DNA from: Candidatus Poseidoniales archaeon
GTDB taxonomy: Archaea; Thermoplasmatota; Poseidoniia; Poseidoniales; Poseidoniaceae
Assembly: GCA_038146705.1 (NCBI GenBank)
Contig: JAYQSB010000005.1
Location: 10,628 to 74,627 of the forward strand
Direction of reading: 5' to 3'
Length of the DNA stretch: 64,000 nt
Positions within the stretch are counted from its first letter, which is position 1; every line of letters begins with the position of its first letter. Below the pieces are notes generated by a model. It saw nothing but the letters and a program-made list of their open reading frames with translations. It had not been told where the DNA came from and did no database searches. A program made the position numbers and the translations under genes. Positions 28,012 through 32,152 of this stretch are shown in pieces.

Positions 28012-28282
28012 ATCTTTTTTCCTCCTGTCATTTTACCATTTACTGAACTCAGTACCTGATGTTTCTAAGGAGCGAGGCTACTAATATAACCGTTGCCCTC
28101 TTCATGAACGAAGTTGTTACATAATTCTGATAAATATCGGTGTTTTTTTTACATTCAAACCTATTAAGTAAGTTAAATTCTACACATTCCACAGGAAATG
28201 CATAACTAAATGTAACTATATTGTAGATTAACTTATATATACTGCGGAATTTTGCAAACAATTGTTGGAAAGAGGAGAAATT

Positions 28283-30766
28283 ATGACAATTCGTCCAATT
28301 CGCAGCCGGACACATCGCAAAATCTTGCATTGTTTAATGGACGGTCCTGCGACTGTTTCAGAATTAGCACAATGGTCGAGTATGAAATTACCACACATGT
28401 CCCTTGGCTGCAAACAACTTCGGGAAACGGGTCATATCCAGAGGGATGATGTAACAGGGATCCGTAAAGCCCCTCATCGTCTAACGCAGTTGGGTGTTGA
28501 AAGAATTCGTTCGGATATGGTCCATCATATGCTAAAGGCCAAGGTAGGATTGTTCCCATCAAATAATGATGCTATCGTCATTAAAATTGAAGGTTCAAAA
28601 GTCCTCATAGGTTACACAAAACAACCAAAAAATCAACTCCATTTCATACCGAGCAAGGGTTTCGAACAGAGCAACAACCCCTCTAACATCTCCAAAGGAA
28701 ATGGAGGGGGTACTTGGATTTCGATTCACGGTTCGACAATTGGATGGTACAATGCAATAGATGGAAGTCCAACCACACCTGAAACACCTGCAAAAGGGAC
28801 GCTGATCGAGTTTCAACATCCTGAAGAAAAATTGGGGCTTGTTTGGGGGAACATTCTTCGGGAATCACATGAATCGCAATTGTCTGAAAAAACATGGTTT
28901 AACTCAAATTTTGATGGAACTGAAACCTCAGAATTTTCATTGGGCGATTATTATCTTGGGAAAATAGATCATGAAATTCCATTTCAAATACATCGAGGCA
29001 TACATGCCATCATTACCTCGTCAATTGAGCGTGAATTACTGATTCAACAGCTCGCAAGAAAATCAATGACGGCTGTTTCTCTACAAAATCGTCAAACAAA
29101 AATGCCATACAATGTACTCGTTGAATGGGTTAAATTGATTCATCCAAGACTTGATTTTTCGAAAGTCGAATCAAAAGCCTCTGATTTATTTCGTCGAATC
29201 AAGGATAAGAAAATTAGGCCATCAAAGCAACTTAACGAACTTCGAAATGATTTTCAGAACGTGGAATGGGTCAACGATTCCAATGCTGACCTCATGCACA
29301 TATCAATTGCAGGATGCAGTGAAAGAGGTTCAAGGGCCGTAGCTGAATTCTTACTCACAACAACTACACCATGGGTGTTTGAATGGAACTATAAATTACC
29401 AAAGGACAACTTACTTGAACGTTGCATCTCCTACAACCATTGCGTTTGTGTGATAACAAAACAAGTTGAAGATATACCACTAACGAATGCTCAGATGGTT
29501 CTTCGCTCTACGTCAAATATTGGCGAAATTGATGTACATATATCAAGACGTGGAACGTTTTCGTTCCACTTAGATACCCATGGTGATGAACAAGCACCTC
29601 AACTGTTCCAATTTTTCCCAAGAAATGCTGAAGAATTAAAAAAATTCGACATGCAAACTTCGCTACAAACAGCCCAAAACTTAGAATTAGGCTCAGAATT
29701 TCACACGCCAACAATTCACGCTGCAATACGATGCTACCCAGATGGCGATTCGGATTTGGCAAATTCAATCGAACGTCAAGAACCGCTTGCGTCTTGGATT
29801 GCTTCACCGATGGAAGAACGCCCTAAGAGATGGGAGCGGATTCATGACAAATTACCACCTGGCTGGGTTGAATTACTTGACATGAGATTGATGAGTGATG
29901 AAATGCTGTTGAAAAGTTCAATGTATGGCGGCAGGAAATGGATAGAAGAGATGATGTCAGAAACGAAACTTAGAAGTTTAAGCCACCCAATGTTTTTGCT
30001 GAAGTTGTTCGAAGCACTCGATGATGAAAAAATCCAATTCAACGCTGCTGCAATCATTCTTTCTTCTGTTGATTTCATCGACCAAAACTATCGCGTAAAA
30101 ATTGAGGAGGCGTTTGAGAAGTGGACTCAACAACCCATATTTTCAACATATGTATTGGAGATGTTATTCAAATCTTCAACGTTCTCTGAGACAGAAAAAA
30201 CGAATATGTTAGGACGTCTCATCTCAAAAGAATTCGATTTCAATCAATTTCCAGTATTTACAACATGGCAGAAATACCACCGTACAAACAAAGAACAACT
30301 ATCTGCAGAATTTATTCAACGCTGTATTAACAATTTTCCTTCGCATTGGTGGAAAAAGAACGCTGTTCATTGGTTTAGTATACTATCATCAAGTAAATCC
30401 GGTCGAGATTGGCTCTCAAAACAACGCATTTCTTGGTCAATACAACTTCTTTCCCAATACCAAAACAAATGGGGCATTCCTGGTGTTAGCGGGGAGATTG
30501 ATCATCTCCAAAGTATTGATCTCGTGAGTGTTGAGAGGGTCATTTCTAATTCTGAAATTGAGAACGAACATTTAACAGACTTGCATCAAGTTCTTCTCCA
30601 TCGTGAAAAGTCTGGAATTCCCCGTTGTAAGACCCATCCTTTGCTTGGATGGTTATCGAAATCTGTTGAGCAGTGGCCACCTTTTTCACCATCCTCATTT
30701 CTCCTAGAAGATTCATTTATCGGTCAACATCTCTTTGAAATGTTTTCATCAAAATTGCACGACTAA
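28283..30766 (+). CDS. Large hypothetical protein with N-terminal ArsR/MarR-like wHTH
   Basis: KILHCLMDGPATVSELA...PHMSLGCKQLRETGHIQR; remaining ~750 aa unrecognised, Trp-rich and helical. Confidence 0.65.
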   Translation: MTIRPIRSRTHRKILHCLMDGPATVSELAQWSSMKLPHMSLGCKQLRETGHIQRDDVTGIRKAPHRLTQLGVERIRSDMVHHMLKAKVGLFPSNNDAIVIKIEGSKVLIGYTKQPKNQLHFIPSKGFEQSNNPSNISKGNGGGTWISIHGSTIGWYNAIDGSPTTPETPAKGTLIEFQHPEEKLGLVWGNILRESHESQLSEKTWFNSNFDGTETSEFSLGDYYLGKIDHEIPFQIHRGIHAIITSSIERELLIQQLARKSMTAVSLQNRQTKMPYNVLVEWVKLIHPRLDFSKVESKASDLFRRIKDKKIRPSKQLNELRNDFQNVEWVNDSNADLMHISIAGCSERGSRAVAEFLLTTTTPWVFEWNYKLPKDNLLERCISYNHCVCVITKQVEDIPLTNAQMVLRSTSNIGEIDVHISRRGTFSFHLDTHGDEQAPQLFQFFPRNAEELKKFDMQTSLQTAQNLELGSEFHTPTIHAAIRCYPDGDSDLANSIERQEPLASWIASPMEERPKRWERIHDKLPPGWVELLDMRLMSDEMLLKSSMYGGRKWIEEMMSETKLRSLSHPMFLLKLFEALDDEKIQFNAAAIILSSVDFIDQNYRVKIEEAFEKWTQQPIFSTYVLEMLFKSSTFSETEKTNMLGRLISKEFDFNQFPVFTTWQKYHRTNKEQLSAEFIQRCINNFPSHWWKKNAVHWFSILSSSKSGRDWLSKQRISWSIQLLSQYQNKWGIPGVSGEIDHLQSIDLVSVERVISNSEIENEHLTDLHQVLLHREKSGIPRCKTHPLLGWLSKSVEQWPPFSPSSFLLEDSFIGQHLFEMFSSKLHD

Positions 30767-30804
30767 TACGATGTATTCAAAAACATGCAGATCTTGGATA
30801 AAGC

Positions 30805-31053
30805 ACCGTACCTGCAACATCGGGCTGAGTCGAAAGACTGTGATGTCTGACACCACGGTACGGCCGCAATCGAAGGCCACATTGACCGAAAGGGATGAAA
30901 TGTGGTGCAATGCGGTAAACCTCGGTGGACTATGGGTCCTCATGCGACGCAAGGATGACCATGAGACAACCAATCCACCGGACAGTACGCCCCGAATTCG
31001 AGGGTCAAGCCTCTGAGGACACGATGAAGAAGGCTGTTAGAATTCGGGGCACA
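30805..31053 (+). ncRNA. Multi-hairpin archaeal H/ACA pseudouridylation guide RNA (4 units)
   Basis: Four consecutive hairpins, each with an apical GA/GA K-turn or K-loop and an internal loop; followed by ACG, AAA, ACA (30982) and ACA (31051); T-tract after; hairpin 4 pocket complementary to 23S H69 (recalled). Confidence 0.85.
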
Positions 31054-31129
31054 GGTTTTCTTCAAAATCACGCATTAGAAATCGAATTCTTGCGATGAAA
31101 TCAAAATCGACTGCCGTGTCGAAGTCATT

Positions 31130-32152
31130 GTGAGCGAGCAGAAACAATACGAATGTTGTCTCCTCGGGGGAACATTCGATCGATTTCATGCAGGTCATGA
31201 ATTATTACTCAGCACAGCACTTTCAATGGCACGTCAGGTTGAGATACATATCTTAAATCAAAGCGATGCAGAGAAAAAATCACCTCACATTCAATCTGTT
31301 GAAGTAAGGATGAGGGCCATTGAGCACTGGCTCAAGGAACATCAACACTCAAATTACCAATTATTCGAATTGATTGATAGCCACGGACCCGCCCCCACGC
31401 ATGCAAAAGCAGATGCAATTGTTGCAACGTTGGAAACGAGATTTGAATGTGAAAATATCAATAAAATACGGGTTGAAAATCACCTCAAAGAATTGGATAT
31501 TATCATTGTACCTCAATTACCAAGTTTTGATGGAGGCATCATCAGTTCCACGCGAATTAGAAATGGTACAATCGACACAGAGGGACTACCTTGGATTCAA
31601 AATGATTGGCGAAAGCATCCATTGTTGATGACGAGAGATGTTGGTGAGATGTTGAAAGAACCTTTTGGCACATTGTTTGAAGGGCCGGAAAATGAACCTT
31701 CAATCGCACTTGAAAATATCTTTATTGAATATGATTTCACAGAATCCCTCCTTGTAACAGTCGGTGATGTCACAACAAAAACTGCTCTCGACATGGAGGT
31801 TATACCAGACATTGCACTTATTGACGGTAAAACGAAGCGAATTGATCTCGCCGATTCTGAGAAAATCGATATCGAAGTATTCGATCTCAAACTGTATGTA
31901 GAAAATCCAGCTGGTCGATTACATCCTGATCTTTTGCAAGCCATTGAAGAATGCTTTTTGTCTGAAGAAAAATGTGTGATTATAGTTGAAGGAGAAGAAG
32001 ATTTAGCACCTCTTTTTGTTCACTTATGTGCGCCTCTTGAGACTGTCATTCTGTATGGGCAACCCCACAAGGGCGTCGTTGCACAACCCACAACACTTGC
32101 TTCAAAAGAAAGATGTGCTCGGATTTTAGGTCTGTTCGAGGTGCTTGATTGA
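31130..32152 (+). CDS. coaD: Fused phosphopantetheine adenylyltransferase + GTP-dependent dephospho-CoA kinase (DUF359)
   Basis: GGTFDRFHAGH, ISSTRIR; then LKEPFG, TVGDVT, IDGKTKR, NPAG, GEEDL, YGQP. Confidence 0.9.
   Translation: MSEQKQYECCLLGGTFDRFHAGHELLLSTALSMARQVEIHILNQSDAEKKSPHIQSVEVRMRAIEHWLKEHQHSNYQLFELIDSHGPAPTHAKADAIVATLETRFECENINKIRVENHLKELDIIIVPQLPSFDGGIISSTRIRNGTIDTEGLPWIQNDWRKHPLLMTRDVGEMLKEPFGTLFEGPENEPSIALENIFIEYDFTESLLVTVGDVTTKTALDMEVIPDIALIDGKTKRIDLADSEKIDIEVFDLKLYVENPAGRLHPDLLQAIEECFLSEEKCVIIVEGEEDLAPLFVHLCAPLETVILYGQPHKGVVAQPTTLASKERCARILGLFEVLD

Follow-up and report, generated by a model that had tools for sequence, protein, structure and literature searches.

A 64,000-nucleotide (nt) stretch of the genome of a Candidatus Poseidoniales archaeon, referred to here as the window, very probably encodes a stable box H/ACA pseudouridylation guide RNA of about 250 nt that is composed of four tandem units. 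The gene occupies positions 30805-31054 of the forward strand, with edges taken from blastn and covariance-model matches, and its four hairpins are called HP1 to HP4 (Table 1). It lies between an open reading frame (ORF) that ends at 30766 and another that starts at 31130; the only ORFs that overlap it are short chance ones of at most 93 amino acids (aa), and the RNA gene is non-coding. The guanine-plus-cytosine (GC) fraction is 0.545 at 30800-30999 and 0.34-0.44 in the flanks. The host assembly comprises 2.04 Mb, is 95% complete, and holds the window as contig C5. A preliminary description, made from the letters alone, had recognized the architecture of an archaeal H/ACA small RNA (sRNA), and the sequence that it quoted reads identically at 30805-31054.

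Structure and conservation of the RNA

The minimum free energy fold of the forward strand consists of four consecutive hairpins (-93.5 kcal/mol, z -3.24), and one of 200 shuffles was as stable. The reverse strand folds nearly as well (z -2.85), and because of this the strand assignment relies on evidence other than folding energy. Each of the four hairpins is capped by a kink-turn (K-turn) or kink-loop (K-loop) of the form GA-(stem/loop)-NNN-GA, and in all units 5-7 Watson-Crick pairs and one or two non-canonical layers separate the pocket from the G-A pairs. The four tandem hairpins with a common cap that had been described are all found in the fold, and the 11-bp stem of HP4 and the ACA triplets at 30982 and 31051 are present in the sequence. 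The distance from the top of the pocket to the ACA is 15 nt in HP4, the value reported previously, and 16 nt in HP3; together with the pocket hairpins and their K-turns or K-loops, this spacing agrees with the proposed architecture. In archaeal H/ACA guides the K-turn or K-loop lies 5-6 bp above the pocket, and the ANA box, usually ACA, follows each motif at 14-15 nt (at most 16 nt) from the target position. Some details changed. The basal stem of HP1 had been given as ACCGU/ACGGU, for which covariation substitutes CCGUAC/GUACGG (30806-30811 with 30858-30863); the letters ACG that had been read as a box after HP1 belong to this lower stem, and the upper stem of HP2 also takes in the pair 30876-30906.

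Within the genus, blastn recovered the block from 34 of 36 further genomes (72-98% identity), with edges at 30805 and 31054 and flanks that could not be aligned; it was found in none of 24 genomes of the other two families sampled. For the genus, 30 sequences were aligned with MAFFT, which avoids the bias of fitting to a model, and scored against a structure that we had written. Of the cells, 98.0% pair, compared with 30-40% for slid partners, and both sides change in 16 of 61 pairs. With the covariance model built from this alignment, 136 of the 151 genomes that were sampled across the order each yielded one full-length match and no more, and 22 of 22 genera were represented. By family (here f1, f2 and f3) it matched 73/74, 1/2 and 61/74 genomes, and those without a match are mostly incomplete. 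In an order-wide set of 25 sequences from 22 genera, the alignment of which was fitted to the covariance model and leans towards the structure, 93.0% of cells pair (35-49% when slid), 56 of 61 pairs change both sides, and none of 500 shuffles reached any of the five measures of pairing. The preliminary description had staked its call on structural conservation in relatives, and the covarying stems of the genus alignment and of the 25 order-wide sequences provide it.

Order-wide covariation supports all four hairpins helix by helix, in every lower and upper stem. HP1 is included: all 12 of its stem pairs change both sides, with 91-93% of cells paired. In the lower stem of HP4, 10 of 11 pairs do so. 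The commonest base of a stem position occurs in just 0.58-0.74 of the order-wide sequences, and each of the eight GA dinucleotides in the K-turns is present in 24-25 of the 25. The pocket cores are invariant across the 25 sequences, with GCAAC and ACC in HP1 (25/25 each, and an additional A in 23/25), CGAAG and GC in HP2, GGUC and AC.ACC in HP3, and GGUCA and GUU in HP4. An ACA follows HP3 in 23-24 and HP4 in 23-25 of these sequences, and no conserved box follows HP1 in the 25. The gene order (834-aa ORF, RNA, PPAT-DUF359 gene) is identical in 24 of 24 loci across the order. Family f3 (loci L154-L166) has a larger HP1 cap, with about 30-45 nt above the K-turn, in which a CCCC...GCCGGAGG-like element recurs; the genus of the window organism lacks this element.

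Predicted targets in 23S ribosomal RNA

Targets were sought with the rule 5'-(complement of 3' guide)-U-N-(complement of 5' guide)-3' in the host's own 16S ribosomal RNA (rRNA; contig C10), in its own partial 23S rRNA (contig C34) and in the complete 23S rRNA of a relative whose RNA is 96% identical. E. coli numbering was obtained by alignment to rrlH of E. coli K-12. The guide strands of HP4, GUUA and GAGGGUCA, form 12 of 12 Watson-Crick pairs with UAAC-UA-UGACCCUC in the host's own 23S rRNA, leaving unpaired the U at C34:1435, which is E. coli U1915 in helix 69. HP4 had previously been paired with a proposed archaeal helix 69 loop; the host's 23S rRNA carries exactly that sequence, and the unpaired U aligns to U1915. 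HP2 matches UUGC-UA-CUUCGAU of the same 23S rRNA with 4+7 Watson-Crick pairs (11/11), placing its target at C34:2009 (E. coli 2496, in the peptidyl-transferase ring). HP3 matches the A-loop, GGUUGU-UC-GCCCAU, with 6+6 pairs including one G-U, and its target would be C34:2068 (E. coli U2555). From these sequence matches, we predict pseudouridines at U1915 for HP4, at 2496 for HP2, and at either U2555 or U2554 for HP3.

To gauge these matches we used the genome on both strands as background (4.08 Mb). It contains 25 fully paired sites for HP4, among which the helix 69 site is the only one without a G-U pair, 23 fully paired sites for HP2, three of them without G-U, and 16 sites with at least 12 pairs for HP3. 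Because the scanned rRNA makes up only about 0.09% of this background, the chance of each rRNA match is about 0.001-0.02. The four rRNA sites, counting the candidate for HP1 that is discussed below, read identically in five f3 genomes.

Expression and gene boundaries

Among 24 runs listed, 18 are recorded as RNA and contain part of the stretch. Contigs from four metatranscriptome runs, belonging to four studies, cover 30812-31048, and none covers 30650-30796 or 31049-31250; the preliminary description had made its call depend on transcription, and the element is found among the contigs of all four studies. Multi-hairpin RNA contigs came from three studies and measure 232 nt (30814-31045, all four hairpins), 203 nt (30846-31048) and 189 nt (30836-31024). 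Adapter letters adjoin the contig sequence at 30812, 31047 and 31048.

It may be that the four hairpins are co-transcribed and then cut into one- or two-hairpin guides, so that a four-unit ribonucleoprotein never forms. The distribution of boxes would give such a precursor natural break points (HP1 and HP2 without a conserved ANA, HP3 and HP4 with ACA), and run X4 yielded contigs of 64, 102 and 130 nt with depths of 415, 2233 and 1210, contig depth being an unreliable measure. However, the single contigs of 232, 203 and 189 nt span several units, the lower stems of HP1 and HP2 abut without a linker in the window's genus, and units released by a cut behind HP1 or HP2 would lack a 3' box altogether. 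The multi-motif RNAs Pab35 and Pab40 also work as whole RNAs in vitro, according to Muller 2008. We consider a precursor of this kind quite improbable and prefer a guide that acts as one four-unit RNA.

Upstream of the gene we noted by eye a promoter-like element (Table 1). A CGAYG-N2-3-TTCAWAW-like motif occurs at a similar upstream distance in most of the 25 loci, again by eye, in a flank that is otherwise unalignable, and it is presumably a B recognition element (BRE) with a TATA box. On the other side, a T- or pyrimidine-rich run lies within about 10 nt of ACAG/ACAC in most of the 25 loci (by eye); the tract in the window directly follows the ACA box and would act as a terminator.

The location of the RNA, 30-90 nt upstream of the PPAT-DUF359 (coenzyme A) gene and on the same strand in 24/24 loci across the order, raises the question of whether it is a structured 5' leader or regulator of that gene, such as an L7Ae-responsive K-turn leader, and not a trans-acting guide. 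Such a leader is highly improbable. The RNA contigs end at 31045-31048 and none extends over 31049-31250, the ACA is followed by the T-rich tract and then by a second promoter-like motif before the PPAT-DUF359 gene, and neither pockets that match three functional 23S sites nor ACA boxes would serve a leader. In addition, the sub-threshold Rfam match of the RNA is to an H/ACA family, RF00064.

The neighbouring genes and intergenic sequence provided further observations. The second copy of the motif (CGATG...TCAAAAT, 31093-31109, by eye) lies between the RNA and the downstream gene, and the CGATG-N2-3-T(T)CAWAW shared by the sRNA and the next gene may be a BRE/TATA consensus of this lineage. The upstream ORF (28262-30766, forward strand, 834 aa) matched no Pfam family; it adjoins the sRNA throughout the order, with 19-35% identity over its C-terminal part. 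The downstream gene (31130-32152, forward strand) encodes a cytidylyltransferase-like (PPAT-type) domain fused to DUF359. Full-length relatives of this fusion, at 29-33% identity, occur in candidate-phyla-radiation bacteria (Levyibacteria, Gottesmanbacteria), and other archaeal matches mostly cover the DUF359 half only.

Table 1. Coordinates of the four-hairpin RNA gene, its units and its presumed signals in the window
Feature	Position	Strand	Details
Four-hairpin H/ACA-type sRNA gene	30805-31054	+	about 250 nt; edges from blastn and covariance-model matches
Promoter-like element	CGATG 30769-30773; TTCAAAAA 30776-30783	+	about -36 to -22 of the conserved block; motif by eye
HP1	30806-30863	+	lower stem 30806-30811/30858-30863; upper stem 30820-30825/30845-30850
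HP1 pockets and K-turn	5' pocket 30812-30819; 3' pocket 30851-30857	+	GA 30827-30828; GA 30842-30843
HP2	30864-30919	+	lower stem 30864-30868/30911-30915; upper stem 30876-30883/30899-30906
HP2 guides and K-turn	5' guide 30869-30875; 3' guide 30907-30910	+	GA 30884-30885; GA 30897-30898; AAA 30917-30919
HP3	30923-30984	+	lower stem 30923-30929/30974-30980; upper stem 30939-30944/30960-30965
HP3 guides and K-loop	5' guide 30930-30938; 3' guide 30966-30973	+	GA 30946-30947; GA 30957-30958; ACA 30982-30984
HP4	30989-31053	+	lower stem (11 bp) 30989-30999/31040-31050; upper stem 31008-31012/31031-31035
HP4 guides and K-loop	5' guide 31000-31007; 3' guide 31036-31039	+	GA 31015-31016; GA 31026-31027; ACA 31051-31053
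T/pyrimidine-rich tract UUUUCUUC, terminator-like	31056-31063	+	directly after the ACA box; putative function

Guide machinery and other H/ACA genes in the genome

Of the four partner proteins named for checking in the preliminary description, the genome encodes three above the cut-offs: Cbf5 (325 aa, with the domains DKCLD, TruB_N, TruB_C_2 and PUA), Nop10 (33 bits) and L7Ae (78 bits). A second protein of the L7Ae/L30e family is also encoded. For the fourth, Gar1, only a sub-threshold signal was obtained. The gene with this Gar1-like domain lies on contig C32 (10839-14075; locus L006, 670-1788, reverse strand), and its product has RanBP-type zinc ribbons; if it is Gar1, this would be an unusual format for the archaeal protein.

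A strict H/ACA descriptor gave 46 matches in the genome and 22 in a reversed control; it recovered HP3 and missed HP4. A relaxed descriptor was applied to GC-rich sequence not covered by long ORFs, in 61 regions obtained by merging the unlabelled islands among 116. It recovered all four hairpins (6 matches), and none of its 36 other matches (18 in the control) was followed by an ACA. No second H/ACA gene was seen in these two crude scans, which cannot show absence. The GC-rich islands held other candidates. Contig C2 carries, in such a non-ORF island at 95914-96014 on the reverse strand, two tandem copies that resemble the 3' half of a transfer RNA (tRNA), with T-arm, acceptor strand and CCA-like end, and these could be an attachment site that was duplicated by an integrated element. 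Other such islands, neither tRNA nor rRNA and likewise not in long ORFs (GC 0.57-0.65; C13:41356-41664, C12:41500-41715 and C36:18364-18554), might encode further structured RNAs, for example RNase P RNA or signal recognition particle RNA.

Points against the assignment and the role of HP1

Several observations weigh against the interpretation of the RNA as an H/ACA guide with four working units. At gathering thresholds, Rfam has no match in the whole 64-kb window, and the match of the RNA to RF00064 (HgcG, Pab40), although it extends over model positions 1-276, scores 31.8 bits (E 2e-7) where the gathering score is 77. The statement that the RNA was unannotated holds at those thresholds, but the full-model match below them reduces the novelty and leaves the call intact. 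HP1 has no ANA box 3' of the hairpin. HP2 does have the AAA that had been reported after it, but at 10-11 nt from the pocket top, not 14-15, and this triplet is confined to part of family f1 and not kept across the order, so that only HP3 and HP4 are followed by a conserved ACA. In Haloferax, the 5' unit of a guide with two hairpins depended on the ANA of the internal box (Majumder 2020). For Gar1, the sole signal scores 19-23 bits and comes from the N-terminal end of a zinc-ribbon protein of 373 aa. The RNA data are assembled contigs, which speak to presence and to the lack of flank cover and not to strand, exact ends, level or processing.

The guides of HP3 and HP1 raise further difficulties. 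In the U2555 register of HP3, the invariant C30938 is unpaired and the spacing to the ACA is 16 nt. In an alternative register, with 15 nt and A30966 unpaired, the target would be U2554, and the predicted target may be either of the two. Moreover, 5 of the 25 order-wide sequences have different HP3 guides despite an unchanged A-loop. For HP1 we found no canonical target in the 16S rRNA, the 23S rRNA (the host's own and the complete one of the relative), 41 tRNAs or whole genomes, and the non-canonical candidate in 23S rRNA that we describe below makes only 3+5 or 3+6 pairs. The variant HP3 guides, from f3 loci L156, L160, L162, L164 and L166, end in ..UAGGUC or ..AAGGUC on the 5' side and read ACUACCC or ACCACCC on the 3' side; the search for an alternative rRNA target for them returned only 10-pair matches at chance level.

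The candidate site for HP1 is GGU-U(U)-GUUGC in 23S rRNA (E. coli 2603-2612). It complements exactly the invariant letters of HP1, ACC and GCAAC(A), and leaves U2606 (and U2607) unpaired. We estimated the chance of an HP1-like match in 4.3 kb at 0.01-0.05, for a candidate that was found post hoc. We take E. coli 2606 to be Pyrococcus position 2698, presuming a constant offset of 92 between the numbering of Muller 2008 and that of E. coli. Position 2698 is described as frequently pseudouridylated in eukaryotes in Muller 2008. We assign HP1 to U2606, in helix 93, only tentatively, as a possibility that falls somewhat short of being probable. A search for the corresponding site in the sister order found no 23S rRNA sequence in five of five genomes.

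Other candidates for HP1 were set aside. In the genomes of five relatives, two of which consist of a single contig, the pattern GGTRTNTGTTGC had 16 matches, compared with 8 in a reversed control, and none recurred in a homologous gene. Position U13 of tRNA-Gly(UCC) would give 13 pairs with one mismatch, under lenient rules that yield 35 sites in 4.08 Mb; we took it as a chance match because about 0.06 such sites are expected in 7.3 kb of stable RNA. Messenger RNAs were likewise rejected as targets, the best canonical genome matches (C6:63830, C28:7303 and C19:18692) lying in or antisense to coding regions. HP1 alone matched no Rfam family.

These results allow that HP1, and possibly HP2, is non-catalytic, an L7Ae-binding structural or chaperone module that might hold helix 93 or stabilize the RNA, with only the ACA units making pseudouridine. 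The absence of an ANA and of a canonical U-N target in HP1 would fit such a role, as would the sister order, which lacks HP1 and retains the other three units, and the importance of the internal ANA in Haloferax mentioned above. On the other hand, the pocket cores of HP1 are invariant in 25/25 sequences while its stems covary, and its invariant letters fit a single 23S site beside a position that is often modified in eukaryotes, if that position is indeed 2606. All 11 pairs of HP2 with its site are perfect, and the counterpart of HP2 in Pab40 presumably guides that site as well; an ACA was dispensable for guiding by a typical single hairpin in Haloferax (Majumder 2020). We regard a non-catalytic HP1 as unlikely, and retain the reading in which all four hairpins are guide units.

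Proposed mechanism and significance

By analogy with the family, each hairpin would offer L7Ae a K-turn or K-loop about seven stacked layers above the pseudouridylation pocket, and the two pocket strands would bind the 23S rRNA sequences that flank an unpaired U-N. The conserved ACA of HP3 and HP4 would anchor the PUA domain of Cbf5, with HP1 and HP2 serving as ACA-less units. A more far-reaching proposal, which we think unlikely, is that the whole RNA-guided pseudouridylation programme of Poseidoniales resides in this one four-unit RNA, which would assemble four Cbf5-Nop10-Gar1-L7Ae sets, include ANA-free 5' units, and modify 1915, 2496, 2555 and 2606 in concert during assembly of the 50S subunit. 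The abutting lower stems of HP1 and HP2, which could stack coaxially, or the neighbouring particles might then replace the ACA-PUA anchor. If this proposal is true, four sites around the peptidyl-transferase centre and in helix 69 would be modified in concert.

For Poseidoniales, the uncultured archaea of Marine Group II, the analysis identifies a conserved gene for a guide RNA that is represented in RNA libraries. It also predicts, in a form that can be tested, four pseudouridines in the rRNA of the catalytic core of the ribosome. It would extend the range of archaeal H/ACA guides from one to three units to four, and would offer an example of unit gain in the old HgcG/Pab40 family. The internal units, naturally without an ACA, would allow a test of how strongly guiding depends on the ACA/PUA anchor, a question left open by the Haloferax work. 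The covariance model annotates a gene that is missed at Rfam thresholds in 136/151 genomes of the order.

Comparison with known guide RNAs

The closest known relative is HgcG (Pab40, RF00064). In an E-value scan of Rfam, a 451-nt stretch gave no RF00064 match, and shorter stretches did. The alignment places HP2, HP3 and HP4 on motifs 1, 2 and 3 of the model and HP1 on its unstructured 5' part; the guide strands resemble those of the family in motifs 1 and 3, the alignment to motif 2 is poor, and the window RNA has an extra 5' unit. By the rule of Rfam the RNA is not a member of RF00064, and from the sequence comparison homology is likely. In the sister order within the class, the covariance model gave weaker matches in 4/43 genomes of family f4 and 0/2 of family f5 (42-43 bits, under the stricter filters of a large search). 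The RNAs found there have three hairpins with the guide cores of HP2, HP3 and HP4 and an ACA 14 nt from the first pocket, and in place of HP1 they have an AU-rich stretch with a TATA-like box. They match the full RF00064 model with 36.9-43.7 bits (E 4e-10 to 5e-8), also below the gathering score of 77.

Like the window RNA, HgcG/Pab40/Pf7 of Thermococcales and Methanococcales combines several H/ACA guide motifs, with K-turns and ACA boxes, in one archaeal RNA. According to Muller 2008, motif 1 of Pab40 guides position 2588 of the P. abyssi 23S rRNA and motif 3 guides 2016, in domain IV. By their numbering, these positions are presumably the sites of HP2 (E. coli 2496) and HP4 (helix 69). The RNAs differ in that Pab40 has three units and the window RNA four, HP1 being without a counterpart, and in that the internal units of the window RNA lack conserved ANA boxes. 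Furthermore, the middle unit of Pab40 targets 23S position 1932, whereas the middle unit of the window RNA is a plain hairpin directed at the A-loop.

The preliminary description had stated that known archaeal H/ACA RNAs have one to three hairpins, and the same range is given in published sources: mostly one hairpin and rarely two or three (2021 review), and one, two or three motifs (Muller 2008). The full-text literature that we searched, excluding supplements and most subscription journals, contained no archaeal H/ACA RNA with four hairpins or four motifs, and among the papers listed for small RNAs of Poseidoniales or Marine Group II none named either group.

Uridines 1940 and 1942 of the Haloferax 23S rRNA, which we take to lie in helix 69, are among the few 23S sites served by sR-h45 of Haloferax volcanii. 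Like the window RNA, sR-h45 joins more than one H/ACA hairpin in a single RNA and comes from a mesophilic archaeon. It differs in having only two hairpins, and its internal ANA is required for function. Two pseudouridines are made by its second stem-loop, in which UVUN stays unpaired, whereas HP4 in the canonical register leaves only U-A unpaired.

The H/ACA-like sRNAs of Pyrobaculum (Toffano-Nioche 2015) are single motifs reported in Crenarchaea. They resemble HP1 and HP2 as K-turn and pocket units that depart from the canonical design of a lower stem plus ACA, and the 2021 review mentions 'highly atypical' features. In the window RNA, by contrast, the ACA-less units retain a lower stem that covaries, and they form one RNA together with canonical units. 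Eukaryotic hairpin-hinge-hairpin-tail H/ACA small nucleolar RNAs also carry tandem guide hairpins, directed at the same rRNA regions and each presumably with a full protein set. Their hairpins number two, each followed by H and ACA boxes; they have no K-turn, and Nhp2 takes the place of L7Ae.

Taken against these systems, the window RNA is probably a diverged relation of the three-motif HgcG/Pab40/Pf7 family and gained HP1, its fourth unit, at the 5' end in Poseidoniales. We rate it as derived from the HgcG/Pab40 lineage, with four units of which two lack an ACA and with conservation across Poseidoniales, and as belonging to a kind that is itself known.

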